In this document: in pieces, positions 1-17,798 of the stretch
Layout of the letters: each line of letters begins with the position of its first letter
How positions within the stretch are numbered: position 1 is the first letter of the stretch
Origin: an uncultured Nitrospiraceae bacterium
GTDB lineage: Bacteria; Nitrospirota; Nitrospiria; Nitrospirales; Nitrospiraceae
Direction: 5' to 3'
DNA length: 64,000 bases
Assembly: GCA_963706325.1 (NCBI GenBank)
Contig: CAVPLT010000004.1
Coordinates: 1-64,000 of the forward strand
The notes under the pieces: model-generated
Seen by the model: the letters and a program-made list of their open reading frames with translations, nothing else
Database searches by the model: none
What the model was told of the DNA's origin: nothing
Made by a program: the position numbers and the translations under genes

Positions 1-124
1 GCTGGATGCGTGGATACGGAAGAACACCGTGATGCCTATGCCACCAAGACGCGCATAGATCGCGAGATACGAGGCGGACGGGGTGCCAGTCGTGGCCCCG
101 CCGCCGCCCAGCTTTGTTAGCGGG

Positions 125-253
125 CTATTGCAGAAGATTAAGGGTCAATATACCCAAGGCGAGAACGAGACTCGCCACTGCGAGCCAGCGGTACCAGCGG
201 TTATTGTAGTCGGTCTTGTCGAAGGTGTCCGTGTAGCGATTGCGTCCGTTCAT
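125..253 (-). CDS. Small single-TM membrane protein, 42 aa (MNGRNRYTDTFDKTDYNNRWYRWLAVASLVLALGILTLNLLQ)
   Basis: Read by hand (below ORF-track cutoff); SD AAGGGAG before ATG, upstream TAGAAT -10-like box, C-terminal hydrophobic helix. Confidence 0.55.
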   Translation of the reverse strand: MNGRNRYTDTFDKTDYNNRWYRWLAVASLVLALGILTLNLLQ

Positions 254-326
254 CTGATTACTCCCTTGAGAGCCATTCTACGGCACAGTGTGGCATGAAA
301 AAAACCCCACGAAGGTCGGATTAAGA

Positions 327-356
327 TTGACAGCGAGGTGTATCTTTATATACCAT
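327..356 (+). promoter_or_regulatory. Sigma70 promoter of the XRE-integrase operon with palindromic operator in the spacer
   Basis: TTGACA 327-332, 18-bp spacer, TACCAT 351-356; imperfect palindrome GGTGTAT-CTTT-ATATACC 337-354. Confidence 0.6.
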
Positions 357-361
357 CCATT

Positions 362-574
362 ATGCTCACACAGTTGAAGAAATGGCGAGAAAAGCGGGGG
401 TTCTCCGTGCGCAAGCTTGGGGAATTAGCAGGTGTTACCCATGTGACTGTCGTGCGCATGGAATCAGGCAAGCTGGACCCGCGCCTCTCAACGGTCCTCA
501 GACTGTGTAGGGCATTAGGCATTACGGTGGATCAACTGTTAGGCGTGGCCACTGAGCCACGGAAAGGTAGGTAG
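362..574 (+). CDS. XRE/HTH_3 family transcriptional regulator
   Basis: LKKWREKRGFSVRKLGELAGVTHVTVVRMESGKLDPRLSTVLRLCRALGIT is a canonical Cro/CI-type HTH; ATG 362 chosen because the ORF-track start lies inside the promoter. Confidence 0.9.
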   Translation: MLTQLKKWREKRGFSVRKLGELAGVTHVTVVRMESGKLDPRLSTVLRLCRALGITVDQLLGVATEPRKGR

Positions 575-578
575 TCCG

Positions 579-1697
579 ATGGGACTGACTAGACGGAAGG
601 ACAGCTATTATGTCGAGTTTCGAGTGCTCGACGATGGCAAGGCGCTGAGGCTAGCCCATGAAGGTGCGGGGGGAAGGCTGAAGCGGTGGAAAGTTGGATC
701 GCTCAATAAGACCCTGGCTAAACAACACGAGTCGATCATTAAGACGGACTTGATGAAAGGCAGCATTACAACTGACCAGGCCAAACTTGTTCGGTTTAAG
801 GAATGGGGATTTCGCTACTTAGAGCTGGAAGAGGTTCGGCGCTTACGGTCTTTTCGAGACCGAGATAGGATTCTCAGGCACCACCTAATACCCTATTTCG
901 GCGCTTTGGCCTTGTCTGAGATCAAGCCAGACGACGTTGAGCAGTATCGAAGCCAGCGGCGTAAACAAAATGGTGACGCGCCTACACTCCAGACCGTAAA
1001 CAATGACCATATTATTCTGAAGCATTGCCTCAACGTAGCGATTCGACGCGGATTGCTCGTGAGTAATCCCGCTTCCAAAGTGCCCCTACCGGACCCTCAT
1101 AATGAACGAGACCGTGTGTTAACAGAGGGTGAGTGGGAACGCTTGCACGAGGCAGCGGCTCCGCACCTCAAGCCCATGCTCCTGCTGGCCTACCATCTAG
1201 GGCAACGCTTTGGAGAGATTACTAATTTGACGTGGGACCGCGTGGACCTTCAGCGGGGGTTCATTACCCTGCGTTCCATTGATACTAAGACTAAAAAGGC
1301 GAGACAGGTTCCACTCACACCCGCCGTACGGTTAGCCTTGAGCGAGTTAGCCAAGGTGCGGCGTCTGAATACGAACCATGTCTTTGTGTATGATGGGCAA
1401 CCCATTAAGAGCATTAAGACTGCATTCAGGAGAGCTAAACGGGTCTCGGGGGTCAATGGCTTCCGCTTCCATGACCTACGACATTGTGCAGCAACCAACC
1501 TGAGAAGGGCTGGAGTTGATACAGCAACGGCGATGCGGATTGTGGGTCACAAGTCCGAGAAGATGTGGAAGCGGTATAATGCGATCGACGAGAAGGACCT
1601 GACCAAGGCAGCGTCTAGACTGAACACTTACCTCGAAGCTAACACGCTAATAACACCTGCTGATTCCGCTCAATCTTCCAACTCTGTAAGTGCTTGA
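579..1697 (+). CDS. int: Tyrosine recombinase / phage integrase (left element)
   Basis: Catalytic motifs GQRFGEI (R), TKT (K), FHDLRH (HxxR), VGHK, KRY (Y); ends 5 bp from the tRNA 3' end. Confidence 0.95.
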   Translation: MGLTRRKDSYYVEFRVLDDGKALRLAHEGAGGRLKRWKVGSLNKTLAKQHESIIKTDLMKGSITTDQAKLVRFKEWGFRYLELEEVRRLRSFRDRDRILRHHLIPYFGALALSEIKPDDVEQYRSQRRKQNGDAPTLQTVNNDHIILKHCLNVAIRRGLLVSNPASKVPLPDPHNERDRVLTEGEWERLHEAAAPHLKPMLLLAYHLGQRFGEITNLTWDRVDLQRGFITLRSIDTKTKKARQVPLTPAVRLALSELAKVRRLNTNHVFVYDGQPIKSIKTAFRRAKRVSGVNGFRFHDLRHCAATNLRRAGVDTATAMRIVGHKSEKMWKRYNAIDEKDLTKAASRLNTYLEANTLITPADSAQSSNSVSA

Positions 1698-1699
1698 TT
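1687..1699 (-). promoter_or_regulatory. IHF-consensus site in left att arm
   Basis: AATCAAGCACTTA matches WATCAANNNNTTR. Confidence 0.55.
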
Positions 1700-1702
1700 C
1701 AT

Positions 1703-1779
1703 TGGTGCCCCCGGCCTGAATTGAACAGGCGACCTTCGGTTTAGGAAACCGCTGCTCTATCCAACTGAGCTACGGGGGC
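1703..1779 (-). tRNA. tRNA-Arg (CCT)
   Basis: Folds as a 77-nt cloverleaf: GCCCCCG/CGGGGGC acceptor, anticodon loop TTCCTAA, T arm GCCTG-TTCAATT-CAGGC, encoded CCA. Confidence 0.97.
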
Positions 1780-1780
1780 A
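1741..1780. repeat. att direct repeat, left copy (tRNA-Arg 5' half)
   Basis: 40 bp identical to 27888-27927. Confidence 0.95.
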
Positions 1781-1791
1781 ACGTTATTTTT

Positions 1792-1804
1792 CAATAGCTT
1801 GATA
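1792..1804 (-). promoter_or_regulatory. IHF-consensus site in island att arm
   Basis: TATCAAGCTATTG matches WATCAANNNNTTR. Confidence 0.55.
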
Positions 1805-1832
1805 CTCTATTGGCCAGCTGATGAATTGTCTA
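1804..1832 (-). promoter_or_regulatory. Putative island-supplied sigma70 promoter for tRNA-Arg, embedded in the integrase 3' end
   Basis: TAGACA (1832-1827), 17 bp, TAGAGT (1809-1804); the -10 box contains the integrase stop codon; 24 bp upstream of tRNA +1. Confidence 0.6.
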
Positions 1833-2919
1833 GTGTCATTACCGTGTCCGCTTGCTGAAGGTATTTATCTAACTTTGCAGCGGCCAGCGTCAAGTCACGT
1901 TCTTCTATAGAATTGTATCGCTTCCACATCTTCTCAGATTTATGCCCTATGATCCTCATGGCAGTGGCCGTGTCCACACCTGCCCGGCGAAGGTTGGTTG
2001 AGGCACAGTGCCGAAGATCGTGAAACCTGAAATCCTGAAGCCCTGCGGCTTTCAGCGCTGACTTGAAGGCCCTAGAAACCCTTTGAATAGGCTTGCCCTT
2101 GTATAGGAATACCCGGCTTGTCTCAAGCCTTCGCACTTTAGCGAGTTGCTGAAGTGTGGTTCTCACTGCTGGGGTCAACGGAACCTCCCGGCGCGTATTG
2201 GTCTTGGTGTCCACTGCTCGTAACAGAATGAACCCTCGCCTGAGGTCTACTCGGTCCCAGGTCAATTCTATAATCTCGCTGAACCGCTGTCCCAAGTGAT
2301 AAGCAAGCAACAATATCGGGCGGAGGTGAGGCTTGGCGGCCTGATAGAGTCGTGGCCATTCATCCTCACTTAGGACTCTGTCCCGCTCGTTTCGCGGGTT
2401 GGGCATGGCTACCTTTGCCGCTGGATTGCTGGCCACCAGTCCACGTCTCACAGCGATATTGAGGCAATGTTTTAGTGCCGTGTGGTCGTTGTTCACGGTT
2501 TGGAGGCTGGCTGGTTGGCCATCCTTCCTCAATCGCTGAGCGCGGTAGGTCTCAATGTCCTGCGGCCTGATCTCGCTAACAATTTTCCGACCGAAAAAGG
2601 GCATCAGCTGACCGGTGACTCGTTCCACTCGGTCGCGATAAGTCCTAAGCCCTTTCACTTCCTCCAGGCGGAGGTACTGTTTTGCCCACTCGCTGAACAG
2701 TATGGGCCTGGCTTCCTCAGTGAGTATTTTCCCAAGAAGGAGATTGGTTTTGATGGCCGCTTCCATGTCTCGCGCAGCCGTCTTGTTAAGAGTGCCAACC
2801 TTCCACCGTTTGAGCCTCGCACCAGGCACACCCGACGCCAGGCGAAGAGTCTTGCCGTCTTCAGAGGTGAGGACACGGAACGCGACGTAATAGCTATCAG
2901 GTCGTTTCGTCAATCCCAT
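1807..2919 (-). CDS. int: Tyrosine recombinase / phage integrase (island)
   Basis: GQRFSEI, TKT, FHDLRH, IGHK, KRY; start MGLTKRPDSYY chosen by alignment to the paralogue at 579 and SD GAGAGGG. Confidence 0.95.
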   Translation of the reverse strand: MGLTKRPDSYYVAFRVLTSEDGKTLRLASGVPGARLKRWKVGTLNKTAARDMEAAIKTNLLLGKILTEEARPILFSEWAKQYLRLEEVKGLRTYRDRVERVTGQLMPFFGRKIVSEIRPQDIETYRAQRLRKDGQPASLQTVNNDHTALKHCLNIAVRRGLVASNPAAKVAMPNPRNERDRVLSEDEWPRLYQAAKPHLRPILLLAYHLGQRFSEIIELTWDRVDLRRGFILLRAVDTKTNTRREVPLTPAVRTTLQQLAKVRRLETSRVFLYKGKPIQRVSRAFKSALKAAGLQDFRFHDLRHCASTNLRRAGVDTATAMRIIGHKSEKMWKRYNSIEERDLTLAAAKLDKYLQQADTVMTLDNSSAGQ

Positions 2920-2964
2920 TATTCGCCCTCTCACTCCTCCGAAGCTGCTAGAGCATGGTCCTTG

Positions 2965-3183
2965 TTATCCCTGAGTCGCGCGACCTTCCAGAAGCTTCTG
3001 CGTCTCGACCCGTGCCTTAACCGTGTGTTGATCGATCCACTTGTCGAGGTCATGCTGCTTGAATTTTACGAGGCGTCCCACCTTCACGAAGCCAAGCTTC
3101 CGTGCCGATACCCAGCCGTAGAGGGTCAATTTTGATATGCCTAGATACTCCGATGCCTCATCCATTGTCAAAAGCCTGCTCAT
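2965..3183 (-). CDS. xis: Excisionase / HTH_17 DNA-binding protein
   Basis: MSRLLTMDEASEYLGISKLTLYGWVSARKLGFVKVGRLVKF; SD GGAG; directly upstream of int. Confidence 0.88.
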   Translation of the reverse strand: MSRLLTMDEASEYLGISKLTLYGWVSARKLGFVKVGRLVKFKQHDLDKWIDQHTVKARVETQKLLEGRATQG

Positions 3184-3458
3184 GATCACTCCAGGAAAAT
3201 TTTGTTGTCTGTATCCCGCCGAGATCTGTCCGATTCCCGCCCTACATCCATGCCGCCTACCAGACGGCCCGGGTTGAAGAGAATTCCACAGCGGGTGCGA
3301 CCCGTGGCCGGAGAGCAGGGGACAGGCCTTCCCGGTCCCCTCCCGGTCTCGCCCCTCCAGGCCTGCCCACTGCGAGAGCCCCGTGCCGCCTCTTCTTCTA
3401 CGCCCCACCCTCGGTTTGTGAAGGGTGGGGCTACATAGTCTTGAAGAAGGAGGCGGAC

Positions 3459-3963
3459 ATGTCCGTTGATAGTTCTCTCGGTTCCTCGAACGGTGGACGG
3501 CCATTGAACCCGGTTCGGAAATACGGTGTACCTCGGTACCGCGTCACGCTCGTGCGGGAGGGCCGTGCCATTCCGGCGGCTGAGTCGGTGCATACATCGG
3601 AGGGCGCGGCCGCGATCCTCCGACCCTTGTTCGCCGGCTTGGACCGGGAGCAGTTCCTGATCTGCGGCCTGGATGCGAAACATGGGCTCATCGGCATCAA
3701 TGTCGTCTCCACCGGGTCGCTGACCTTGGCCATCGTCCATCCGCGCGAAGTGTTCAAGCCGCTGATCCTGATGAATGCCGGCGCCTGGATCTGTGCCCAC
3801 AATCACCCCTCCGGCGATATCACGCCGAGCCCAGAAGATCGTGTCCTGACCAAACGGCTGCGCGAAGCTGGCAGACCTGTTCGGCATTCCGCTGCTCGAT
3901 CATCTCATCCTCGCCGAAGAACGCTACTACAGCTTCGCCGACCAGGGCTGGCCCGGCGCTTAG
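3459..3963 (+). pseudogene. radC: RadC-like JAB domain protein, +1 frameshift near 3870
   Basis: VHPREVFK and AHNHPSGD motifs; the expected C-terminus DLFGIPLLDHLILAEERYYSFAD continues in another frame to TAG 3963. Confidence 0.88.
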
Positions 3964-4088
3964 CGGAGCAGCCGCAACACCCAGGCGGCTCCTGCGGCCA
4001 CTAGCGCGAGTCCAATCGCCGCCGTCCCCCAGGCGACCAGGTCGGTCGCCAACGCATTGCCGATGGTGTGAATTTGTTGCGCCGTCAT
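3960..4088 (-). CDS. Leaderless coat-protein paralogue, 42 aa (MTAQQIHTIGNALATDLVAWGTAAIGLALVAAGAAWVLRLLR)
   Basis: SD AAGGAG; shares DLxxWxxAxIGxAL with mature pVIII at 4178-4393; basic C-terminus. Confidence 0.7.
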   Translation of the reverse strand: MTAQQIHTIGNALATDLVAWGTAAIGLALVAAGAAWVLRLLR

Positions 4089-4143
4089 CCTTGCATCTCC
4101 TTCGCCGTTGCCCTACTCATGCTGTCGATGTGATGCGAGAAAG

Positions 4144-4169
4144 GAGGCAGGCTGCTGCCAGCCTGCCTC
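4144..4169 (-). terminator. Hairpin terminator after the major coat gene
   Basis: Perfect 11-bp stem GAGGCAGGCTG/CAGCCTGCCTC, 4-nt loop, short CTTT tail. Confidence 0.65.
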
Positions 4170-4177
4170 GATGGGCC

Positions 4178-4393
4178 TTACCCGCCCACAATCGCCTTCA
4201 CGCGCTTAAAGGCATAGATGGCCAACGCCACCCCAATCAGGGCCGCCGCCCACAAGAGCAGATCGGCCCGCACCGTGGCCACATCTGCGGAGACCGGAAA
4301 CAACTGCGCGAACGACAACGCCGGTACGCCCAATGCGAAGACCAACGCCATCAGGAACCCGGTGACTCCCTTCACCCATCCCACACCCTTCAT
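4178..4393 (-). CDS. Inovirus major coat protein (pVIII-like) precursor
   Basis: 71 aa: signal peptide ending ALSFA, 42-aa mature chain with acidic N-terminus, TM helix and basic tail FKRVKAIVGG; very strong SD AAGGAGG. Confidence 0.88.
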   Translation of the reverse strand: MKGVGWVKGVTGFLMALVFALGVPALSFAQLFPVSADVATVRADLLLWAAALIGVALAIYAFKRVKAIVGG

Positions 4394-4466
4394 AGAGCAC
4401 CTCCTTGTGCTATCTGGTGGAGTCGTCCACCCGCGCCGCCGGAATCCTCGCCGACGGACGAGCGCC

Positions 4467-4574
4467 TCAGTGACTCTGAGGCAGAATCAGTTTGATGATC
4501 AGCCCCACGGCAAAGCCGCCGAGCCAGAAGATCGCCGTGAAATAGGTCATGGCTTCAATCGCCGGCAGGTCCAT
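4467..4574 (-). CDS. Minor coat protein-like (pVII/pIX-like), 35 aa (MDLPAIEAMTYFTAIFWLGGFAVGLIIKLILPQSH)
   Basis: SD AAGGAG, single TM helix, directly upstream of pVIII. Confidence 0.7.
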   Translation of the reverse strand: MDLPAIEAMTYFTAIFWLGGFAVGLIIKLILPQSH

Positions 4575-4860
4575 AGAACACTCCTTCGCCAATCACCCGC
4601 ATCGATCCGTCCTCGTAGACTTCCGAGACCGATCATTCCATAGCGTCCGGTAATCTGCGCGGCCGTCAGGATCTCGCCGCTGTCCAAGAGATAGCGCCAG
4701 CCTTGACGGTTCGCTGATGAGCCTGCCCCGCCGAGGATGCGCACGGTTCGCTTCGGTGGTGGCGGAGTTGCTGGCGCAGATGGAGACAGACGCCCCAATG
4801 GATTCAGCAGACTGCCCGGCGCCGATGAGGCAGACGGAGGCAGACGTCGTGGTGCCACGG

Positions 4861-5568
4861 TCACTCCAGTCGCAGGGGTGTCCCTTGGTGCTGATTCAAC
4901 GACGACCAGGGCCGCCAGGCCATGAGGGCGATGGCAAAGAGTCCCGCGGCAATGCCGATCGCGATTCGCGCCGATTTGAAGATGGTATGGCTCCGCTTCT
5001 CTTCCTGGATCGCCGCCGACGCATAGCTCGAATAGTAGGCGTAGATCGCCGGTGAATAGGTCCCGACGAAGGCGCGAATGGTCTCGTGATCTTCGGGATT
5101 CCCCCGCACCTTGCCCTGATACTTTTTCGACAGGCCGACAAAGGCCAGCTTGCGAAACTTCACCGTCGCTTCGATCAGTCGCGTGACGCCTTGCGACATC
5201 TGCCGAAAATCCTGACTCATGAGCAGAATATCCACGCCGTAATGCCGATGGGTTTCGAGCCAGCGCAGCAGACCCGGCTCGACCTTCTGCATCGACCGAA
5301 AGACGGTTTGCGCTTCGTCGATAATCACCGCCGAGCCCGGCTCGACATGTGGAAAGGCCTGGAGGACTTCGACGGAGTCTTTCCAGATCGTGATCTGTTG
5401 TTCGAGGGCTTCGAGCTCAATGCCCGTGAACAACGCCAGCCGATCCAGATAAATCCCATCCACCGCGATATAGAGTCGTCGGCCTTGCCGGACCCACGGC
5501 AGGAACTTTTCGCAGATCGCGTGATAGGACTTCCCGGAGCCTGGCACGCCTTCATACAGTTCGATCAT
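4861..5568 (-). CDS. zot: Zot / pI morphogenesis ATPase; C-terminus probably continues in another frame to ~4600
   Basis: N-terminal Walker A GVPGSGKS, Walker B VIIDEAQ, HRHYGVDILLMSQ, TM helix; Pro-rich continuation in ORF 4547-4864. Confidence 0.93.
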   Translation of the reverse strand: MIELYEGVPGSGKSYHAICEKFLPWVRQGRRLYIAVDGIYLDRLALFTGIELEALEQQITIWKDSVEVLQAFPHVEPGSAVIIDEAQTVFRSMQKVEPGLLRWLETHRHYGVDILLMSQDFRQMSQGVTRLIEATVKFRKLAFVGLSKKYQGKVRGNPEDHETIRAFVGTYSPAIYAYYSSYASAAIQEEKRSHTIFKSARIAIGIAAGLFAIALMAWRPWSSLNQHQGTPLRLE

Positions 5569-5649
5569 CGCACTACGCCTCCAGAGCAGCCAGATGGTGC
5601 CCGGCCAAGATCGCCGTCCATCCATAGGCCACACTGACTGGTGTCATGT

Positions 5650-5925
5650 TCATGAGCCCCACCGCACAAACGGAATGGTTTGCAGAATGAACCGGGTTCC
5701 CATGGCGCTCGCCACGATGGCCAGCGCCTGACTCATGCCCGTCGCGCCCAGCACCCACGCATATTGATCAGGAATGACCGGCAGGGTGAGCCCTGCCGTG
5801 CCCATGGTGCTCAAGGTGCTGTCCGCCACGGAAAGCAGGGAATCCCAGATGCCCAAGCCCCAATCGGTGAGCGAGAAGAAGAACTCCTGCAGCCAGCAAT
5901 AGATGAGGGTCAGAATGGCCGTCAT
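5650..5925 (-). CDS. pVI-like minor coat protein (DUF2523-like)
   Basis: 91-aa hydrophobic protein ending RFILQTIPFV, between pIII-like and Zot; ATGA overlap with the upstream gene. Confidence 0.8.
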   Translation of the reverse strand: MTAILTLIYCWLQEFFFSLTDWGLGIWDSLLSVADSTLSTMGTAGLTLPVIPDQYAWVLGATGMSQALAIVASAMGTRFILQTIPFVRWGS

Positions 5926-7150
5926 GTGGTCTGTCCTCCTCCCACGAAGATGATGCGATAGGCGGCGAAGGAGGCAATGGCGATCACGAGCGTGCGGAGC
6001 ACGGTGAAGAACCAGGCCCACTGATTGAAGTCCACTTGCTGGTTGCCGAAGAAGGCCGAGGGGAGCGCAATCACCGGCAACGTCGAGGGCCAGGTCAGGG
6101 ATTTGAGGAGATTCAGGGTGCTGAGCAATCCGCTGCGTCGCCCAGATCGTTTGATGCGCTTGGAGGACGGTTCCGAAGGTTCGATTCTCATGTGTCCCTG
6201 CTGTAGCATGACGTGGTGGCTTCCGTCTCTTCTTGCTTGCGTCGTGGAGCCGTCGGGATTCTGGGTAGTTGTTGTGGTCGTCGTGGTGGTTTGCTGTTGC
6301 GTGTTCTGCTGCGGGGTACTTGCCGGAGGCGCGACACTATCGACGACGATGATGTCTCCCGCAGGCACGGGCTTCGGCTTGACGGTCGTCGGCATCTCAC
6401 TCGGGGACGACAGGCTGCGAGACGGTCTTGTCTGCCGGTTGCGTCGTGCCGGTCGTGCCGACGGGATTGGTATGCTGCTCAATGGACATGCGGAGCCGTG
6501 CGGGACGGTCACGAGATACTGTTGGACCGCCTGCTGGGCGTCGGCGGGATCGAGCGCTCTTGTAGCGGCGGGAGCAGCCCGGGACACCATCCGATGGCAG
6601 ACGTGGACCGGCGACCGACCCAGGACCGTGACGAAGAAGTTGCCGGGAAAGCCGTGCGATGCTTGAAAGGCCGACGACCCAGGCATGCAGATATCGATCG
6701 CCGCGCGCAGGGACTTGCCGGCTGAACTGAATACTGCGTGGGTAATCGTATGAGGTCTGGCCAGTTGGAAAGGTCTGGGTACCAGCATTGTACTGCCACT
6801 TGCCGGTCGGCGGGGTGAGGCCGCCGTTTTGATCGCGGCGAGGTCCGGTTGCGAATAGTACATCTGGGCCAGAACCAATCCGGCGCCGACTCCGAGCGCC
6901 GCCCAGTCCGACTGGACCAGCCACTAATCGAACGGCGAAGGAGCTGGCGGAAGGAGCGAGCGCAGCCGTCGCGACTTGGGACGCCAAGGCCGACCGTTGC
7001 GCGGCCAGATAGGCGATGCGTTCCGCTTGGGCGACGACCCGCGAGTACTGCGTCGTCTCTAGGGCGAGCGATTCGCCCGGTGCAAGACAGAAGGAGACGC
7101 AAGAGTGCCCAGATGAATCCGAGATAATCGGTGAGAGACAACAGTTTCAC
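5922..7150 (-). pseudogene. pIII-like adsorption protein, multiple frameshifts
   Basis: Signal-like N-terminus at 7150, Ala/Gly-rich hydrophobic segment (RLVAGPVG), Pro/Thr/Gln-rich linker (QQQTTTTTTTTTQNP), C-terminal TM anchor; pieces spread over three overlapping ORFs. Confidence 0.78.
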
Positions 7151-7221
7151 AATCGTCCGACTCCGAGGCCGGTGAGGAAGGCCAGTAACAAGACCGCGAC
7201 AAGGATAATGGTGAGATCCAC
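7147..7221 (-). CDS. Tiny TM protein, 24 aa (MDLTIILVAVLLLAFLTGLGVGRL), minor coat-like
   Basis: SD GGGAGG, GTG start, GTGA overlap with the pIII-like start. Confidence 0.65.
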   Translation of the reverse strand: MDLTIILVAVLLLAFLTGLGVGRL

Positions 7222-7242
7222 TGACCTTCCTCCCTCGGTCCG

Positions 7243-7506
7243 TTACTTCAAGACTTCCAATCCAGACAGATCGAAGAAGACCCGTCCGGTTTGTTCGAAC
7301 TTCCGCACTTCGATCGAGGCCCGGGCTTGCTTGCCTTCGGCTTGCTTACAGACGTCAATCAACGGCATCTGATCCTCCGGAATCCCCAACCGCAGAATCC
7401 CCGGATCTTTGCCCTTCACATAGAGATCCACCGATCTGAACACCTTGCCCTCCCGACTCCTCCGTTCCACATAGCCCTGTACCGCCCCCTCCGCTTTGAC
7501 TTGCAT
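7243..7506 (-). CDS. ssDNA-binding protein (pV-like), 87 aa
   Basis: SD AGGAGG before MQVKAEG; beta-rich OB-like pattern; size and position downstream of Rep. Confidence 0.75.
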   Translation of the reverse strand: MQVKAEGAVQGYVERRSREGKVFRSVDLYVKGKDPGILRLGIPEDQMPLIDVCKQAEGKQARASIEVRKFEQTGRVFFDLSGLEVLK

Positions 7507-7728
7507 CGTCGTGCACCTCCTGCATGAGTGAGTTGAATCGGAGTCAGCCAAGCGCCTGACCCACACGCCCCGGCCTTCAGACCGAGCTTTGGCGAGATAC
7601 TGAAATTCGGAGTCGCATTCCTGGCAGCTGACAAACAGGGCGCCCTTGACCCATCGGCAGGTCGCCCCATGGGCGCCACACCCGGGACACCCGCGTCGCC
7701 AGGCTCCGTTATGAAACTGTAAGGACAT
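7507..7728 (-). CDS. Small Zn-ribbon protein (CPGC...CQEC), in frame with the pV-like gene
   Basis: Two CxxC motifs; SD GGAGGAG inside the Rep 3' end. Confidence 0.5.
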
Positions 7729-8702
7729 AGGGCGTCCCTCTCCTCCGTTCCTTCAGCAGGGCGTAGTGCTTCTGCTTCCATTTCTTGGTCCCCGCATAGA
7801 TCAACTCCGTCAAAAATTGATCGCCTCGACAGGCCACCACGACCGCGAGCATCGACGCGACGGATTGCGCGAGCCAGGACGCCACGTCATCCAGCCGCTG
7901 CTGGATGCGTTCGACCACGAGTCGGCACCGCTTAAAGCCTTCGGTCAGGGCTTCCCACCAGGACAGCAATGGCGCCCGATACTTTTCGTACGATTCGGCC
8001 TCTCGCGTGGTCTCTCGGAAATCCACATAGGATCGGAGCACGCCCACGAGAAAGGCCCGCCAATCTTCGGCATCGAGCGTGAGGAGGGCCTTGGCGCAGG
8101 CTTGGGCCCGATCCTGTTTGAATTCCATTTCCCACCGGACTCCGTACGAGGCCGCGTCCTCCCGGCCTTTGGCCTGCAGTTCCAGCCGCTTGTCATAGAC
8201 CCGCAGCATGCTTTGGCTTTCCCGACTGCCGAAGTAGAGCGACTCTCCGGTTCGGACGCCTTCGCGATGATTCGAGGCTTGGATCACCTTGAATTGCTTG
8301 GACCGGCTCACGACCTGTCCGGCCTCCACGGCTTGCCGGACCGTCTCGACTGCGACAGTGGCCTCCCGGTCGTCCAGGGCCACATCGGTCCGTGTCACAT
8401 GGCCCTTCTGCGCGAAGATCCAGGCCAGGACCGTCTTGAGCTTGGTTTCATCCCACTGGGAGACAATCCCGGCCGAGAGATCCACATGCACTTCCTTCGG
8501 ATTGCGAGGCGCACCCGTCCCCAGTTTGCCGACGCCGGTCTTGCCCTGCGTCATGAGCTGGGCGACGGGATACCCGCGAAAGCCGGTCTCACTCTGGAAC
8601 CAGTCACCACCAATCAGTCTTGATCACGTCGTCCACCTCAGCCTTCGGGAGCGTGAAGGCCAGCCAATCGATCGTTTGAGTGAATCCTCCAGAACCCGTC
8701 AT
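7709..8702 (-). pseudogene. Rep_trans family rolling-circle replication initiator, +1 frameshift near 8620
   Basis: IDWLAFT at N-terminus (ATG 8702, SD AAGGGGG), TRTDVALDD, SLYFGSRES, LRVYDK, RWEME motifs. Confidence 0.9.
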
Positions 8703-8730: not shown

Positions 8731-8770
8731 ACGCCCCCGTCTTACGCCCCCGTCTTACCAAGTCGGGGGC
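8731..8770 (-). other. Putative Rep_trans double-strand origin hairpin with 13-bp tandem duplication
   Basis: GCCCCCGACTTGGTAAGACGGGGGC then GTAAGACGGGGGCGT; resembles the CCCCC...TAA...GGGGG nick hairpins of Tn916/ICEBs1; just upstream of rep. Confidence 0.7.
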
Positions 8771-9023
8771 TGGTCGGCTGCGCGCGCCGCCGGCTTTCGC
8801 CGCCAGTCGCGCTGCGCCGTCCCGGCTTCCTCTTGGAGACGACAAAGGACGGACCATGTCCCTTGGTCTGCAGGGCTGCCTTCACCCGCTCCAGGTCGAA
8901 GCGCACAAATCGGCAGAATCGATCGACGGGAATCTCGCCTTTGCGGTAGGCCCGGCGGATCGACTTCGGGCTGACTTTGAGGACGGCGGCCAATTCATCG
9001 ACGGTCAACCATATCTGTTCCAT
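8742..9023 (-). CDS. HTH_17 / excisionase-like regulator of the phage module
   Basis: WLTVDELAAVLKVSPKSIRRAYRKGEIP...VRFD; SD AAAGGAG. Confidence 0.85.
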   Translation of the reverse strand: MEQIWLTVDELAAVLKVSPKSIRRAYRKGEIPVDRFCRFVRFDLERVKAALQTKGHGPSFVVSKRKPGRRSATGGESRRRAQPTSPRLGKTGA

Positions 9024-9100
9024 CACGTCTCCTTTAGGTTGCACGCACGATGTATGGCCGAACCATACGCATCGGCGTGCGGTGGTTAAAGAGGCCGGTT

Positions 9101-9140
9101 CGGGGACAGTAAGGGACAACAGGGGACACTAAGGGACACT
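9101..9140. repeat. Four tandem 10-bp repeats (consensus AAGGGACACT), operator/iteron-like
   Basis: cggggacagt aagggacaac aggggacact aagggacact. Confidence 0.75.
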
Positions 9141-9557
9141 ACGTCATCGCATGCAGAGCGTTCATCAGCACACGAAGAGAAGTCGGAAGCGGGTATGCAA
9201 AAAGGTTGTCTAAACTGACAGTTGTGAAGGGGACGCGATCAAAAGCAGCTCTAGGAGCGGTTATTCAGACATAGGGTTAAATCAGCGATGGAGATGAGAT
9301 AGGGCGAATGGAACTTGGGTGAGTCGAATGGGCGTGCCGCCGCGATCAAAATTATGGCGGAATATTACAAAAATCTGCCCTAGGGTCGAAATACTCGTCA
9401 GTAGGGCCTGACGGCTCTATTCATTGTGATGGCCGCAGGTCTCGGCAGTGGGCAGGAATAGCCAGTGGACCGGCAGGCAAAATCGGTGCAACGCAAAGCG
9501 TGGAGAAGTCGGCAGGAACACCACCAACTAGGCACGACTGCTCGTTGGGCACTAATG

Positions 9558-9955
9558 CGTTTATCTATCCGCCCTACAACACGGTGAATGAAGAATGGGT
9601 CTATAACCTATCTCAGCCGCAGTTCGAGGAATGGATTGGCAAGGTTGTTGGGAAGGAAGAAGAGGAAGCGAGTCGGCACGATAAGTGGTGCTGCATGATG
9701 CTTCCGAGGCTGCAATTGCTCAGATAGGTTTTGCGCGATGATGGAGCCCATCTTCATTTCGATCGATGACAATGAAGTTGCCAACTTGCGCGCGCTGATG
9801 GACAAGGTTTTTGGCGAGACCAATTTCATTGCTACGGTCATATGGCAGAAAAATTTCTCACCCAACAAATCTGCCAAATGGGCATCCGGCGACTTGAGCG
9901 CACGCAATCCATACAGTAAGGGTATTTATCCCATTACATGCCCCGATGGTCGCCA
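9558..9955 (+). pseudogene. Type III R-M methyltransferase (Mod) remnant
   Basis: YPPYNT (degenerate DPPY), SRHDKWCCMMLPRLQLLR, ISIDDNEVANLRALMDKVFGETNFIATVIWQK; in-frame stop, frameshift and truncation. Confidence 0.85.
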
Positions 9956-10471
9956 GTCTCCTCCAGGCTCTCGGGGCCTTCGCGAAGTTAAGGCGCTGAT
10001 TACGAGAGACCCCAGCCGAGTACAGCTATCGGCTTGCCGAGCATTCTCCTGGACATTCTGCCAAGGGAGCAGACAACCGAAACGACCTGTGCTAACGATC
10101 CCGCCCGCCTTCGCATGCTGAAAATCCCATTCTGTCCGGATCCCCAGCGGCCGGCCACCGATCGTTCCAGGAATATCTGTCAGGGCGGATTAAGCGAAGC
10201 ATGCGAAGAAGTGCCACCGAGCCCAGCACCATATTCCTGACATGGAGATCGCGAGGGGTGCCATACGCCACTAGGACTTATCCCAGGTGGATGGTGTACT
10301 GTTGTCACGTACCCTGTCAGATAATACGGGTGGTAGGTGGGAGGGAGGGATTGGAATGTTAATGCAATGTGTGCTTGGGCAAGCCCGTTGAAAAACAGAA
10401 TGAGCGCACGTTTGATCGCCACGTGTCGGTCGACTCGGAATTTCAATTCTTTTATAAGATGGGTGGTTTAG

Positions 10472-12796
10472 ATGAACATCACCGGACAGGAGCGCGCCGA
10501 GGAGGCCGTACCTGAAAGTGGCGCGATTTATTGCTCACTCATGGAGATCTTAGATCAGGGCTGCTGTGTGATCGAGGTGTTGTTCGAACAGGAGCAGCCA
10601 GTCGACTATCGATTTTTGGAGACTAATCCATCCTTTAATGAACAGACAGGACTCGCTCATCCTCGGGGCAAGCGCATGCGGGATCTGTCCCCTCAGCACG
10701 AACAACATTGGTTTGATGCCTACGGCCGTGCCGCGTTAACGGGCGAAGTTCAACGGTTCCAGAACGATGCCGTGCAGCCGGGGCGACGGTACGAGGTGTT
10801 CGCCTTTCGCGTCGGGAAGCCTGCAGATCATCACGTGGCGGTCGTGTTTACGGACATTACGGCACACAAACAGACGGAGCAAGCGTTGCAGGCCAGTGAA
10901 CGGCGTCTCCGCAGCATCATGGACCAACTTCCTGCCGGGGTCGGCATCATGGATAAGACGGGCGCTTGGCTGCTGACCAACGCACAGATGGAGAAACTAA
11001 GCCCTTCAGCGCTCCCCGGGCAGACAGCGGAGGGCGTGACGGACCCAACGTGGGACGAGCACGGCATACCGATATTGCCGGAGCAGTGGCCTAGTCGTCG
11101 GGCGTTGCGCGGCGAAACGGTCATCCCAGCGGTGGAGACGCGTCACGTCGGTGAAGCGGGGGAAACATGGACGCGAGTGAGCGCCGCACCTCTTCGTGAC
11201 GACACAGGAAACCTCGTGGGCGCCACCGCAATGGTGTACGACATCACGCACGAGAAACAGGCCGAGCAAGCGTTGCGAAGGAATGCTGAGACCTTTGCAA
11301 CACTGGTTGAACAATCACCGCTCGGTATTTACTCAGTCGATTCGCAGTTCCGGATCCGGCACGTCAGTGCGGGGGCCATGCCTGCGTTCCGCAATGTGCA
11401 GCCACTCATCGGTCGCGATTTTGCTGAGGTGATGCATACGCTCTGGCCAGACTCCTTTGCAAACGAAGCGATTCAGATCTTTCGCCGCACCCTGGAGACG
11501 GGGGAACCCTATTTATCACCAGGCCTCACAAACGTGCGCAAAGACATTGGCGCGATTGAGTCCTATGAATGGCAGACCATCCGCGTTACCCTCGCCGACG
11601 GACAATACGGTGTCGTCTGTTACTATTTCGATACGACACGTCTCCAGCAAGCCAACCAGAACATTCGCGAAAGTGAAGCGCGCTTCCGCGCCTTAGCCAG
11701 CGCCACAAAAGATTCCGTGTATCGCATGAATGCAGACTGGTCCGAGATGCGCCATCTGGCCGGACGGCAGTTCAACCCCGATGAGGGCCACCCTGGTGGC
11801 TCATGGATGGATCGAATCATTCCCGCAGAGGATCACCCGGACGTCCTCGAAAATATTCGACGAGCCATCGATTCTAAAAGCGTGTTTGAGCTTGAGCATC
11901 GTGTCATTCAGACGAACGGCAAAGTGGGCTGGGCGTACTCGCGAGCCATTCCGATTTTGGATGAGCAGGGTGAAATTCGCGAATGGTTCGGCGCAGCCAG
12001 CGATGCGACGGAACGGAAGGAGATCCAGGATCGACTTGAACAGTTTACGGAGGAACTGGAAGCACAAGTCACACACCGTACTGCAGAACTGCTTCAGTCA
12101 CAAGCCCAGCTACGGGCGTTGGGTACCGAGCTGAATCTTGCCGAACACCGCGAACGTCAACGTTTAGCGGAGGAACTGCACGACCATCTGCAACAGCTCC
12201 TGGTATTAGGCAAGTTGACCATCGGCCAACATAAGCGACGAGGCACGACCGACTCGTATTCGGCGGAAGCGATGGCGAAGGTCGATGACCTGCTTTCTGA
12301 CGCCTTGAACTATACTCGAACGCTGGTCGCTGAATTAAGTCCACCGGTGCTCACGGATCACGGCCTCGCGGCAGGATTGAGATGGCTCGGCAACTATATG
12401 AAGAAACATGAGCTAACCGTCACCGTGCTTCTTCCAGCTGAACAGATGCCGGCGTTACCTGCTGATCAGGACATGATGATATTCCAATCGGTTCGAGAAT
12501 TATTGATTAACTGCTCGAAGCACGCCGGAACGGGACAGGCGTCTGTCATGGTTGAGAAACAGGCCGATCTCCTTTGCATCAAGGTGATCGATCAGGGGGT
12601 TGGCTTTGAGAGGGCTGCAAATGCTCCCACTGGAGAACTCTCCTCCAAGTTTGGTCTCTTCAGCATCCGGGAACGGATGAGAGCGCTGGGTGGCTCCTTG
12701 AGTATTCAGTCGGCTCCTGGCATGGGTACCACGGCGACGCTGAGATTGCCGCTGACACCAAAACCCTCTCAATCAATTAAAATGCCCGTGCCTTAA
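10472..12796 (+). CDS. Multi-PAS sensor histidine kinase (HisKA_3, NarX-type), cytoplasmic
   Basis: Repeated PAS/PAC (DIT) motifs, ELHDHLQQ H-box, ELLINCSKHA N-box, DQGVGF, FGLFSIRER, GMGT. Confidence 0.93.
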   Translation: MNITGQERAEEAVPESGAIYCSLMEILDQGCCVIEVLFEQEQPVDYRFLETNPSFNEQTGLAHPRGKRMRDLSPQHEQHWFDAYGRAALTGEVQRFQNDAVQPGRRYEVFAFRVGKPADHHVAVVFTDITAHKQTEQALQASERRLRSIMDQLPAGVGIMDKTGAWLLTNAQMEKLSPSALPGQTAEGVTDPTWDEHGIPILPEQWPSRRALRGETVIPAVETRHVGEAGETWTRVSAAPLRDDTGNLVGATAMVYDITHEKQAEQALRRNAETFATLVEQSPLGIYSVDSQFRIRHVSAGAMPAFRNVQPLIGRDFAEVMHTLWPDSFANEAIQIFRRTLETGEPYLSPGLTNVRKDIGAIESYEWQTIRVTLADGQYGVVCYYFDTTRLQQANQNIRESEARFRALASATKDSVYRMNADWSEMRHLAGRQFNPDEGHPGGSWMDRIIPAEDHPDVLENIRRAIDSKSVFELEHRVIQTNGKVGWAYSRAIPILDEQGEIREWFGAASDATERKEIQDRLEQFTEELEAQVTHRTAELLQSQAQLRALGTELNLAEHRERQRLAEELHDHLQQLLVLGKLTIGQHKRRGTTDSYSAEAMAKVDDLLSDALNYTRTLVAELSPPVLTDHGLAAGLRWLGNYMKKHELTVTVLLPAEQMPALPADQDMMIFQSVRELLINCSKHAGTGQASVMVEKQADLLCIKVIDQGVGFERAANAPTGELSSKFGLFSIRERMRALGGSLSIQSAPGMGTTATLRLPLTPKPSQSIKMPVP

Positions 12797-13365
12797 GGCT
12801 TAGTTTAAAAGTTTTAGGGACCTGTACATCTGGACTGAATTTCTGCTGACATTGGGAGCAGGTGGCTATGTTCAACACATTCTTCTGAAACTCATTCGTC
12901 AAAAGAGACATGTCTTGATTGCGCACGAAACGTGTTCCTCGGTTCGACAAATGTTGGGTTACAACCCCGCGTGAAGTCCCATATTCATTCCTCCCATTTC
13001 TTGGAAGACATCTTTGTCAAGTGGTCTAGCTAAGATCGCTCGACCCACCGTACGGGTCTCGTGAGGGCGCCCATCATCGCGAGCATGCAGATCGCGAGAA
13101 GCAGCAGCAAGCTAGCGGCGAGAAAGAGCCATCCTTTCAATTACTGTGTGAGCATCGCGGAGAGTCTAGTGAACTCCTGGGCCGAACGGACCTAGGAAGA
13201 CCTCTAGCGGCTCGGCAAAATCGGAAGACTTCGCAGCGAAGACTCGCTCCCCCATAACTGTTTCCTGACAGCCTCGAATCCAAACAAACCGTTCGCACAT
13301 GTCCCGACCCAGAAAGCGTATACTCGGCTCTCGCTCCTAGGCCGTTAATGCTAGAAGGACGCCGC

Positions 13366-14139
13366 ATGACGCACCAAGAACGCATCCGTATTTTTGACTC
13401 TCAGGGTGAGGCCTATAAACAGGCCTTTCAAATCTTCCTTGACCACACCGACCAAAAACGCAACGCCAAGCAGTGGCTTCAAGCCGTGGTCGAGAGATTG
13501 CCAGCACGCAACGTGTTTATCGACGCAGGGGCCGGAAATGGAGAGGTCACGCAGGCGTTTGCTGGTGCCTTTACGCGCACCATTGCCATCGAGCCAAACG
13601 TCTATCTTCGGGAACAACTCGAACGGAGGCTCCCGAATGCAGAGGCCATTGGCCAACCGATTCTAGCCGCTCACCCTGCTGCGCAGGGGGACTTGGTCCT
13701 CTGCTCGCATACGTTCTATTACATTCCTCCCGAGGAGTGGGTCGCTCATCTCGAACGGCTGGTATTCTGGATGGCGCCAACGGGCGTGACCGTTGTGGTG
13801 TTGCAGCATCGGGAGAGTGGATGCATGAACATGGTGCATCACTTTTTCGGCCACCGGTTCGAATTGCGCCGGACCGCCGACGCTTTCCGGGCCAAGCATG
13901 GAGACCGCTATGATGTCGTGACGACGATCGACCCTGCCCACGTCCAGACGGCAGACCTGAACAAAGCCTACGCCGTCGCCGAATTTATGCTCAACTTGTT
14001 GGAGATTAAGTACGCCCCGACCAGGCAAGAGGTCGAAGCCTACGTGCAGGCCCATTTTGCCACAAAGGACGGGGGGTACCGCATCCCGGTCGATCAAGAG
14101 TTTCTCCACATTAGCCACCGACAAAGCTCGGATGGGTAG
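13366..14139 (+). CDS. Class I SAM-dependent methyltransferase
   Basis: FIDAGAGNG motif I, AIEPN, DLVLCSHTFYY. Confidence 0.9.
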   Translation: MTHQERIRIFDSQGEAYKQAFQIFLDHTDQKRNAKQWLQAVVERLPARNVFIDAGAGNGEVTQAFAGAFTRTIAIEPNVYLREQLERRLPNAEAIGQPILAAHPAAQGDLVLCSHTFYYIPPEEWVAHLERLVFWMAPTGVTVVVLQHRESGCMNMVHHFFGHRFELRRTADAFRAKHGDRYDVVTTIDPAHVQTADLNKAYAVAEFMLNLLEIKYAPTRQEVEAYVQAHFATKDGGYRIPVDQEFLHISHRQSSDG

Positions 14140-14585
14140 GCTTCAGGTGGTAGGAGGTGCAGTCAGGAGAGGGTGTCCTCGACGTTGGCCTGCAATCCCA
14201 ATGTTAAGGCGCTGGTCACATGCCGTGGTCAGATAACGTCCATGGCAAGAAGGATGACAGAGCGGCAGGTTCCCATTCGAGGAAGGACTGCGATGACGGC
14301 ACCACCAGCACAAGCCAGTCCATCGGCTCGACCTGTCCATAATTTCAGCAATGGGGCAACACCACGCACCTCCTCTGCGAAAATCTGGGATTCATCGTCA
14401 ACCGAGCGGGCTACGCTTTGAACGTGAAGCCCATCAAAATCGGGTTCCTTCGATTGCGGCGGTTCGTCGCCGAAATGTTTCATGTGGAAGGGTCGGTCTC
14501 GGTGATCGGATTGACCGCATCCGTGATTGCCCTCCTGCTGTTCCGCGTTGCCATTTTCTTGGTCATGGGATGGTAACGAGAACGT

Positions 14586-14972
14586 CTACTTGGCAAGTTT
14601 AATGGCTTGTCCGGTGCACGTGATACGTTCCCAACAACCCTGGAAGAGGGTCCTCCCGCGGGGAGGGTCGCATTTCAAATTTTTGATGCCCTCGGCCCCC
14701 TGCTGCTTGGCCCAGTACTTCGCCTCGTTCATAGCATCGGTCTTGGTCGCCGGACGGTCGCCCCTCTTATATTGGCACGACGTCCCTTTCACACTGTCAA
14801 TCACGACATGCTCTTTTCCACTCAGGTCACCTTCCTGCAAGATAGGTAGCTCGAAGATAGCCTCGCGCTCTTCCCGTGGAAGCGAATCCATCTTGTTGAC
14901 CGGCGCCGTCCATCCAGCACACCCTCCTGCCGTCAAAAAAACAGCTACGAGCACACTACGCCTGATGGTCAT
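14586..14972 (-). CDS. RcsF-like lipoprotein
   Basis: Lipobox AGGC; VKGTSCQ...C...GCW...CTGQAI four-Cys pattern as in RcsF. Confidence 0.65.
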   Translation of the reverse strand: MTIRRSVLVAVFLTAGGCAGWTAPVNKMDSLPREEREAIFELPILQEGDLSGKEHVVIDSVKGTSCQYKRGDRPATKTDAMNEAKYWAKQQGAEGIKNLKCDPPRGRTLFQGCWERITCTGQAIKLAK

Positions 14973-15207
14973 GACTCCTCCACTGGGTCTTGAGAGACGA
15001 TGCTGAATACCTTCCACTGATGGACGTGACGGTAAAGGAACCTAGACAGATTCTCTCGTGCCACCTATGTGGCCCGGCTCTGTATTGATGCCGTCGTCTC
15101 GTCCGCTCACCCAGGCCGGCACATCCGCCGATAATAGGGGACGGCCTGATGGGTATGGGAAAAATCTAATTATAGGGGAACTTCTGTTGGTGGGCCATGC
15201 CGCGCTG

Positions 15208-16389
15208 CTATTTGGCAATCGTGATACTCGGCACACCCAGTCGAGGGACTTCCGTCATGGTCATCTGAAACAGCAGGTACAGTAACTGGAAGGCGTCGCG
15301 GTTCCAGCGCGCCAGCGGGCCGTCGGTCCGTACTGCGTAGTATGTTCCCTGAGACTGGATTGCGAGATCAGCCTCCGATGGACTGCTATCGGACCGCACC
15401 ATCTCCATGGTGTACACGGGATTTTCAGCCACGTCTGGCGTGAGGGGTGCTTTGTCGACGTGGTATTCCCGGTCCTCGCCGAGTGACCGTGCAACAAAAT
15501 GGAGCATGGCGTGAAAGGACCGGAGGCGAAAATATCCCCTCATGGGATACTGTCCTCCCAAGTAGCCTGGGCGAATGTCAAAGGAGACATCGTTGAGCCG
15601 CTCCACGTCCGGTTCCTCGCTTAACTGCGCCCGTTCCTCAGCCGACAGCGTCGCAGGGTCATAATTGGTGATGCGGATGCGTCCAGGCACCGATTTCCGC
15701 AGGGTATAGGTGTTCTCGCGTTGGTTGTAGGTGACGAGATATTCCTTTTCCAAGGCGATGAACCCCTCAGCCGTCACAGCATTCGCGGGGATCACCCAGG
15801 TTCGCTCGCTGTTCCGCGGTTCGACGTAGAGATGGTTGTCATCCTGCATGGCCGAGAGGTGGAGGACGACACGTCGAAATCTCTCATACCCGAGGCGATC
15901 GGCGGGCATGTTACGGAAGGCCACCTCTTCACCGTTCTGTTGCAGCCGCACCTCCTGCGCCATCAAGCGCAGCAGGAGGTCAATGTCGAACCGCTGCCGG
16001 AGCAGGAGGATGAGTTTGGCCTCATTGAAGGGCGTCAGCAGCCGCTTGGCAAATTCTTCTCCCTCGATCGGGACAATGCTAATCGTGGGATTTTCGGCCA
16101 CACTGCCCCCGAAGATCGGCACCAACGACCGCCCAGCGTCTCCGGTGAGCGTCGGCGTCGCGCCGGCACTGACTCGGAAATCGAATGTCGCCGCGACGTT
16201 CGACACGCCGGTGAAGTGGATGGGTTGGTGGCGTTCAGCACGAGCGATGTTGACGAGAAGTTGTTTGGCAACGGCGTCCGTGATGGCCTGATCGTAGGCC
16301 ACCACGGCTCGGTTGAGCGTGATGGGAGAGAGACACCCAGACAGGGGGAGCGCACAGCAACATGCAAGGATCGCAGTCGTTGTCTTCAT
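15208..16389 (-). CDS. Hypothetical lipoprotein
   Basis: Signal peptide with lipobox LSGC; long clean ORF. Confidence 0.75.
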   Translation of the reverse strand: MKTTTAILACCCALPLSGCLSPITLNRAVVAYDQAITDAVAKQLLVNIARAERHQPIHFTGVSNVAATFDFRVSAGATPTLTGDAGRSLVPIFGGSVAENPTISIVPIEGEEFAKRLLTPFNEAKLILLLRQRFDIDLLLRLMAQEVRLQQNGEEVAFRNMPADRLGYERFRRVVLHLSAMQDDNHLYVEPRNSERTWVIPANAVTAEGFIALEKEYLVTYNQRENTYTLRKSVPGRIRITNYDPATLSAEERAQLSEEPDVERLNDVSFDIRPGYLGGQYPMRGYFRLRSFHAMLHFVARSLGEDREYHVDKAPLTPDVAENPVYTMEMVRSDSSPSEADLAIQSQGTYYAVRTDGPLARWNRDAFQLLYLLFQMTMTEVPRLGVPSITIAK

Positions 16390-17541: not shown

Positions 17542-17798
17542 TACGAATTGGAAGCCATGCTTCATCCTGGTCCCTAGCAGGTTCGCGGATCTCCACCTTC
17601 CGTCTTGATCTCCTCGTCGGATATTCGTATGACCTCCTCTCCATGCCCCTTCGGAGGTACGCCCTCCGTGTGATGGCACGCGGACTGTCCCTCGCTATGC
17701 TTACACCATGTAAGGACGACGAGAGGAATCGGCCCTGGCATACTTGCCGAGTCTTTGAGGTACCACCCACCCGAGGCCGCGATCGGAAGGAAACGCCC

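Follow-up and report, generated by a model that had tools for sequence, protein, structure and literature searches.

Inoviruses are described, in the available text of PMC7047154 and PMC10175506, as viruses with a single major coat protein plus tip proteins. The locus considered here raises the question of whether one such phage can carry a second coat-type gene and what that gene might do. It lies in a stretch of 64,000 nucleotides from an uncultured Nitrospiraceae bacterium (the window; bare coordinates below are positions in this stretch), for which the original prediction, made from the letters alone, held that a second copy of the major coat gene, devoid of a signal peptide, stands behind a terminator.

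The coat-gene pair and its setting

The predicted gene, here denoted ORF42, is a real open reading frame on the minus strand (3960..4088) with an ATG start and a TAA stop, and encodes a leaderless coat-type protein of 42 amino acids that is predicted by AF2 to form one helix over residues 3-41 (pLDDT 95.7). Its Shine-Dalgarno (SD) sequence AAGGAG (4097..4102, minus) stands 8 nt upstream of the ATG and is weaker than that of the preceding gene (4178..4393, minus), which encodes a pVIII-like major coat precursor of 71 amino acids. Cleavage of this precursor after Ala29, to which the A-x-A pattern and conservation in the family point, would separate a 29-aa leader from a mature chain of 42 amino acids. 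The ORF42 start lies 92 nt beyond the last codon of the 71-aa coat gene, and the predicted 11-bp GC hairpin is indeed found between the genes at 4169-4144 (4137..4169, minus, including a short pyrimidine tail); its loop is GCAG, followed by CTTTCTC, that is, by a weak U tract only, and the 111-nt stretch with the hairpin has a z of -2.42. A second short hairpin (4189-4171, minus), which close relatives share, spans the pVIII stop codon just 5' of the 11-bp one.

Judged from its genes, the element is a Nitrospira-type inovirus (Tubulavirales) prophage: it has a pI/Zot-family ATPase, short single-helix structural genes, pVI and a rolling-circle initiator, the kinds of genes by which inovirus prophages are recognized in the accessible part of PMC6813254. 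Upstream of the coat pair and on the same strand are, in this order, a hydrophobic 35-aa ORF (4467..4574; dN/dS 0.037), whose size and position alone make it a candidate pIX-like tip protein and which gave no clear match to M13 pVII or pIX (<3%, hhalign); the pI morphogenesis ATPase of the Zot family (4547..5568; PF05707, E 4.8e-30; phrog_197; 303-342 aa in intact relatives); a pVI-like minor coat protein of 91 aa (5650..5925; phrog_306, E 2e-9); a putative pIII-like adsorption protein, assigned by size and position (5922..7150; 397-460 aa in relatives); a hydrophobic 24-aa pVII-like ORF (7147..7221; hhalign to M13 pVII 47%, E 1.9e-4); an 87-aa ORF without a family match in the position of the ssDNA-binding protein pV (7243..7506); a Rep_trans replication initiator (7709..8702; PF02486, E 7.2e-37); and an HTH_17 excisionase-like regulator (8742..9026). 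On the other side, a RadC-like JAB gene (3459..3963, plus; PF04002, E 1.2e-27), its frame broken near the end, is convergent with ORF42 and is followed, at 1807..3189 on the minus strand, by an HTH_17 gene (3189-2965) and a tyrosine integrase (2916-1807). A 43-nt att-like repeat (1738..1780) over a tRNA-Arg gene (1703-1779) has its second copy at 27885-27927, with ORF42 between the repeats; these repeats were not found in six relative loci of 12-14 kb, which are possibly too short to show them.

The Rep, pIII, pI and radC genes are each frame-split in the window (3441-8702), with Rep, pIII and pI spread over two frames, and are whole in relatives, so that the splits reflect either decay or an assembly error; pVIII, ORF42, pVI and two small ORFs are intact. 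Across relatives, the pVII-like ORF has 24-31 aa and the pIX-sized ORF 34-35 aa. Since the pVII-like, pIX-sized, pVI and pIII genes are all separate, ORF42 is an extra, sixth candidate structural gene and probably not a stand-in for a missing tip protein.

Conservation and purifying selection

Conservation in related elements, whose absence the original prediction had named beforehand as grounds for refutation, is what was found. Full ORF42 is kept in 37 of 39 aligned copies, the window included (one copy lacks the start and one is degenerate), and in the 36 distinct intact copies its dN/dS is 0.064 (pN 0.036, pS 0.40), compared with ratios of 0.17-7.5 in the other five frames. Third positions vary in 37 of the 42 codons and second positions in 6. 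Mean identity is 86.4% in ORF42, 46.6% in the spacer upstream of it and 98.6% in the hairpin, and in three groups the pN/pS values of ORF42 and pVIII are close (0.10 and 0.09, 0.30 and 0.25, 0.38 and 0.38, respectively). ORF42 is a protein-coding gene under purifying selection. Conservation as a by-product of the convergent radC gene was considered and rejected: only the stop codons of the two genes overlap in intact relatives, the selection signal lies in the ORF42 frame, and 14 of 122 elements are without a radC motif within 300 nt. With the motif found at up to 300 nt in 108 of these 122 elements and at up to 1.5 kb in 113, radC comes close to being a core gene of these prophages.

Among 126 loci found through pVIII, an ORF42 homologue was recognized by pattern in 103 and by inspection in 18, while 5 ended too soon; it thus follows pVIII in 121 of the 121 loci with enough flank, in one of them without its start. 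A pass with HMMs gave 233 paired loci (a redundant set, with 138 distinct DNAs), eight pVIII-like ORFs without an ORF42 partner, six of these at locus ends and two being the same third copy, and two ORF42 matches without pVIII, both in one place at a contig end. A scan of 400 genomes with Pfam PF05356 matched 39 at E <= 0.05 and returned 30 loci, 24 with the pair and 6 without a coat gene; in the 22 of these 24 pair loci that were picked through pVIII, ORF42 was present in every case. The ORF42 profile matched 25 of 401 genomes of the phylum, all from the family of the window (24 of 75 besides genome G000), one match being spurious, and 33 of 61 genomes gave a match in a DNA search, many of them through radC only. 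A search of 1.84 billion proteins yielded 27 ORF42 matches, mostly proteins of 42-52 aa, fragments or read-throughs, and none of 50,697 phage records was matched by an ORF42 relative in tblastn. All but one of the 33 named relatives are recorded as Nitrospira, Nitrospiraceae or Nitrospirota, the exception being recorded as Nitrosospira. ORF42 is 42-49 aa long among relatives and, unlike the small ORFs between pVI and pI, which differ between elements, is a fixed core gene of the examined Nitrospiraceae inoviruses. Single genomes (G018, G020, G027 and G430) carry three to five related prophage copies each.

Relationship to the coat family

The in-register likeness to mature pVIII that had been noticed in the window holds in part: the 16-mers align without gaps, with Asp and Trp at positions 16 and 20 of ORF42 and 15 and 19 of mature pVIII, but BLASTP finds no significance for the window pair by itself (E 1.9), and the pair in a close relative (L002) has 9 identities in 40 columns. 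Significance comes with family profiles, which gave 86% (5e-6), 95.2% (2.9e-8 over 30 columns, hhalign) and 95.7% (8.5e-9, score 37.3, hhalign). Against this last score, the highest value among 60 column shuffles and 60 block shuffles was 17.9, and the reversed profile scored 12.3; ORF42 compared with the other membrane proteins of the element and with the M13 and Pf1 tip proteins stayed at or below 1% (hhalign). Of the second-tier matches of the ORF42 profile over the 401 genomes, 16 of 17 are the adjacent pVIII (E 1.8e-7 to 8e-5). By these profile comparisons, ORF42 is homologous to the adjacent pVIII, above the hydrophobic background.

The links to known coat families point the same way at lower significance. 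PF05356 weakly matches 9 of 19 and 8 of 23 ORF42 family members (E 5e-5 to 1.3e-4), none of them seen above the cut-off of 23.5 bits (the best has 23.0 bits; P0001 gave no match); pVIII also matches weakly, and one pVIII family member passes the cut-off. The only PDB match of ORF42 is 1IFP, a major coat protein of 44 aa (E 0.45). The Pf3 coat gave 69% (4.4e-5) against ORF42 and 45% against pVIII (hhalign), and may, on this weak indication, be the closest solved relative of ORF42, which nonetheless scores higher against pVIII than against the Pf3 coat (37 vs 23, hhalign). A 42-aa PF05356 cluster is the Atlas neighbor of ORF42 at 0.90, a score that shuffles reach 4-10 times in 100. ORF42 has the traits of the coat fold, namely 40-50 aa, one long helix, a hydrophobic core and a basic C-terminus. 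The last of these is reduced to 1-2 basic residues, fewer than in pVIII, so that the claim that both proteins end basic fully applies to pVIII (3 basic residues in the last 10 aligned columns) and to a lesser degree to ORF42 (mean 1.17).

In a tree of 29 pairs plus Pf3, built from 32 columns and without a usable root, pVIII and ORF42 form separate groups (97/100), and the Pf3 coat is placed with ORF42, by a branch that is long and unreliable. The same clade of 11 elements appears on both sides of the tree, and the protein distances of ORF42 and pVIII are correlated (Spearman 0.83 over 64 distinct pairs), which indicates that the pair is old and has traveled together. The second gene without a signal peptide is thus real, conserved and leaderless, but it is an old, diverged paralogue rather than a recent copy. 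Gene conversion or coupled evolution of the paralogues was also considered; identity within clades (9.0-11.9 of 30) is not clearly above that across clades (8.0-10.8), so there is no sign of coupled substitutions. Duplication of the major coat gene is the simplest origin for ORF42; it may also have arisen by capture of a Pf3-like coat gene.

Hairpin and probable expression asymmetry

Indirect signs favor the upstream 71-aa gene as the abundant major coat. Its codon score is 0.097, compared with -0.011 for ORF42, -0.037 for the 35-aa ORF and -0.042 for pI (the 95th percentile of the genome is -0.007), and its codon usage resembles that of the host ribosomal-protein and EF-Tu genes. The codon score of pVIII exceeds that of ORF42 in 98 of 98 related pairs, and its SD duplex is the stronger one in 102 of 105 (mean -12.5 vs -8.7 kcal/mol for ORF42); these counts come from close relatives and short genes and are not independent, so that the asymmetry is a hint, not a measurement. 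In line with the lower output that had been proposed for the second gene, the weaker SD and weaker codon bias suggest that less ORF42 than pVIII is probably made. ORF42, pVIII, pI and radC are all covered in the same way by four sets of RNA-library contigs, which are unable to rank genes and may stem in part from carried-over DNA.

All 135 spacers examined contain a hairpin with a folding energy of -16 kcal/mol or lower (3 of the 138 distinct DNAs, without a start, were dropped), with hairpin sequences unrelated between distant clades and z values of -2.1 to -4.8 in 20 diverse loci; 55-nt stretches within ORF42 fold about as strongly in some loci. The U tract 3' of the hairpin varies from 0 to 8 T in 8 nt, a count lowered in part by the frequent inclusion of the tail in the fold. 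Because the U tail varies, leaky termination or mRNA protection is inferred, and the hairpin is probably a leaky terminator or a stabilizer of the mRNA 3' end. Of the terminator in the original prediction, the hairpin is present, with a U tract that is weak in the window and variable in relatives. No promoter-like site was seen in the spacer between pVIII and ORF42.

A second lineage with paired coat genes

The layout is not peculiar to this phage. A self-scan for coat-like pairs in 17 reference inovirus genomes found a clear pair in one, Stenotrophomonas phage SMA9 (NC_007189, L296; z 11.2). The other 16 genomes reached z <= 5.6 with pairs that were spurious on inspection, in a scan that is insensitive (71 Nitrospira pairs score z 3.0-9.4, with a median of 5.2). 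Supplement file 2 of PMC6813254, in its available portion, gives several size-based major-coat candidates for some genomes, SMA9 and RSM1 among them, and does not call them paralogues; the second candidate of RSM1, ORF7, is not in the top pair of its genome in the self-scan.

Both SMA9 coat genes are leaderless, lie on the minus strand and are unannotated in the NC_007189 record. The first (6206-6069) encodes 45 aa and the second (6016-5867) 49 aa, with PF25631 scores of 59.6 and 33.2 bits, respectively, against a cut-off of 27; between them are a GC hairpin with five T and then an SD. The two proteins match each other (98%, 6e-14) and show no likeness to the Nitrospira pair (about 1% or less); hence the coat-hairpin-coat layout arose at least twice, and the duplication looks independent. 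The second SMA9 copy is not less basic than the first. All 14 IMG/VR loci that were located by means of the second gene have the layout. When loci were picked through the first gene, a second coat-like ORF lies directly downstream in 19 of the best 80 of 106 loci (14 of 46 distinct first coats). Among the same best 80 of 106 SMA9-type loci, 28 have at least two coat-like ORFs within 1.5 kb, with three in a row in L325, and 52 have a single coat gene within that distance, which implies that inovirus assembly does not generally require a second copy. The second coat is thus fixed in the examined Nitrospiraceae elements and optional in the SMA9 lineage.

Further variants occur in both lineages. 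In one Nitrospira-type element, pI is immediately preceded by a third pVIII-like ORF whose product has an acidic tail (L113:867-1064, plus). Among several of the more distant copies in the SMA9 lineage, acidic or D/E-rich C-terminal tails also replace the short basic end, in the downstream copies of L358 and L360 and in the upstream copies of L359, L361, L362, L365 and L382; such paralogues are found in two unrelated lineages. They might possibly act as DNA mimics or as decoys that inhibit assembly. In L345, from the SMA9 lineage, a leader-like first copy is followed by a shorter second copy. One element only, L112, has an SD-led ORF42 homologue of 67 aa (1242-1442, plus) with a leader-like start, ending A-L-A-Q-T where pVIII precursors end in A-Q, and with a two-cysteine stretch ahead of the core; this stretch resembles a displayed loop.

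The role of ORF42

The preferred reading, with a rough probability of 0.55, is that ORF42 is a minority coat subunit made by read-through. Most transcripts would end or be trimmed at the hairpin, which would keep pVIII abundant, and ORF42 would be made at a lower rate from read-through. The leaderless protein would enter the inner membrane as the Pf3 coat does, a leader-free route cited in the reference list of PMC7047154, and the pI machine would add it to the growing filament, in layers near the tip or spaced along a mosaic shaft. ORF42 keeps the helix-packing motif D-x3-W-x4-I-G-x-A-L and only about one of the three DNA-facing basic residues, and would therefore fit best where less DNA has to be neutralized; the loss of basic residues could equally mean that it does not bind DNA any more.

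Fewer DNA-facing charges would also suit a protein that stays in the inner membrane, where ORF42 would either tune assembly at pI or prevent superinfection by interfering with pili, with the entry machinery or with the uncoating of related phages that arrive. Capsid proteins have precedents in such a role: pVII, pVIII and pIII of Pf4 are reported to mediate superinfection exclusion in the portion of PMC11436027 that was available, and small inovirus proteins conferred exclusion in tests according to the accessible part of PMC6813254. The acidic tails of other coat paralogues (L113, L358, L360 and others), seemingly unfit for DNA binding, and hosts that often harbor several related prophages, up to 5 elements in G430, are compatible with it as well. 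The same coexistence of close prophages in one genome, however, means that exclusion of kin is not tight, and the fixed position of ORF42, its fixed length of 42-47 aa, its kept N-terminal amphipathic half and its retention in every examined element are more those of a structural core gene than of an accessory defense, so that a membrane-bound role appears on the whole unlikely.

More doubtful still is a dedicated tip protein of about five copies per particle, a version of the minority-subunit reading with fixed stoichiometry, in which ORF42 would take the outer-ring role of pIX or bridge the shaft to pIII/pVI. ORF42 is leaderless and probably low-copy, and, by the structural account in the available text of PMC10175506, the pVII bundle of f1 is surrounded by alternating pIX and pVIII, each of the two tip proteins being a single helix without a leader; the assignment of the 35-aa ORF to pIX by size and position leaves room for such a role. 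Yet a pVII-like gene and the conserved 34-35-aa candidate are both present, ORF42 compared with M13 pVII and pIX and Pf1 orf30 and orf83 gave <= 1%, and its codon score above those of the 35-aa ORF and pI weakly hints at an output above tip level.

It is quite improbable that ORF42 serves as an alternative major coat under other conditions or in other particles, whether it was acquired from a leaderless phage of the Pf3 type or retained as a spare. The higher score of the Pf3 coat with ORF42 than with pVIII, its place in the tree and the 42-aa PF05356 cluster near ORF42 in the Atlas would agree with such a coat, but pVIII is nearer to ORF42 than Pf3 is, the poorly conserved spacer has no promoter-like site, the SD and codon bias are the weaker ones of the pair, about one basic residue is little for packaging, and the only ORF42 lacking a pVIII partner lies at a contig end. 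Finally, a chance likeness between hydrophobic helices, with ORF42 an unrelated membrane peptide, could appeal to the insignificant single-pair BLASTP and to the inflation of scores by such helices, and is largely refuted by the shuffle, block-shuffle, reversal and other-helix controls (<= 18 vs 37), by the dominance of pVIII among the genome-wide second-tier matches and by independent coat-family matches (PF05356, 1IFP and the Atlas cluster).

Comparison with known systems

Among known phages, Pf3 (NP_040652, PDB 1IFP, in the neighborhood of PF05356, Phage_Coat_B) offers the best solved match to ORF42, a leaderless protein of 44 aa with one helix, but there it is the product of the only coat gene and is followed by a pIII-type gene, whereas ORF42 is the second gene behind a leader-bearing coat. 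The Ff phages (M13/f1) and Pf1 share with the Nitrospira elements a leader-bearing major coat gene followed by an intergenic stretch, which in Pf1 contains an annotated rho-independent terminator; the next gene in these phages is gene III, whereas here gene III is upstream and a second coat gene lies behind the hairpin. The Nitrospira coat pair does not resemble pVIII of M13 or Pf1 in sequence (hhalign, about 1% or less). The SMA9/PF25631 (Inovirus_capsid) lineage has a like succession of coat gene, GC hairpin with a U run, SD and second coat gene, and differs in that both coats of SMA9 are leaderless and the second copy is optional in the lineage. Two related coat genes that yield a mosaic coat are also a feature of engineered 'type 88' display phage, closteroviruses have two related coat genes, CP and CPm, in one filamentous virus, and some archaeal filamentous viruses have two major capsid proteins, with mosaic or end-specific coats in these viruses; all of these are engineered or belong to unrelated groups, and are functional analogies only.

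No description of a natural inovirus with two coat paralogues was found in the open full-text literature, including the available parts of the preprints 10.1101/2023.12.30.573655 and 10.1101/2024.03.19.585677; an earlier mention in subscription journals or preprint supplements is possible. A broader proposal is made tentatively, at somewhat less than even odds: extra coat paralogues may be a recurring, independently evolved and mostly unannotated inovirus design, in which several lineages would have duplicated the major coat gene and a copy behind the coat terminator sets a low ratio and gives naturally mosaic filaments. Such a copy would be free to change its DNA-facing charge, to gain a loop with two cysteines at its N-terminus (L112) or to end in an acidic tail (L113, L358, L360). 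If this is true, the picture of one major coat plus four tip proteins would be overturned for a substantial part of the family. Should a coat-derived protein prove to be a sixth subunit, fixed throughout one lineage and recurring in an unrelated one, virion modeling and annotation would change, and such a subunit would show how the filament lattice tolerates two subunits, as a natural counterpart to two-gene display vectors. If ORF42 is instead a membrane-only decoy, it would represent a new route from a capsid gene to an exclusion or assembly factor. Since the isolated phage SMA9 has the same layout, the question is directly testable.

Other features of the prophage region

Contig C5 of genome G000 (347471-351906, L051) has a second copy of window positions 1-4454, 90.6% identical, in which ORF42 is intact and pVIII is frame-shifted, and which is without the upstream phage genes. 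At 338-2916 of the window, two related tyrosine integrases face each other across the tRNA-Arg gene; the 5' half of this tRNA gene is covered by one repeat, found again at 27885-27927, and the 3' half by another, found again on C5, and the facing integrases together with the two tRNA-half repeats suggest that two elements use one tRNA. A cysteine-rich ORF (7506-7728, minus) extends over the end of Rep into the gene in the pV position and has equivalents in L126, L105 and L104. About 19 kb of other genes (window 9100-27900), including a PAS histidine kinase at 10472-12796, separate the phage core from the far att-like repeat.
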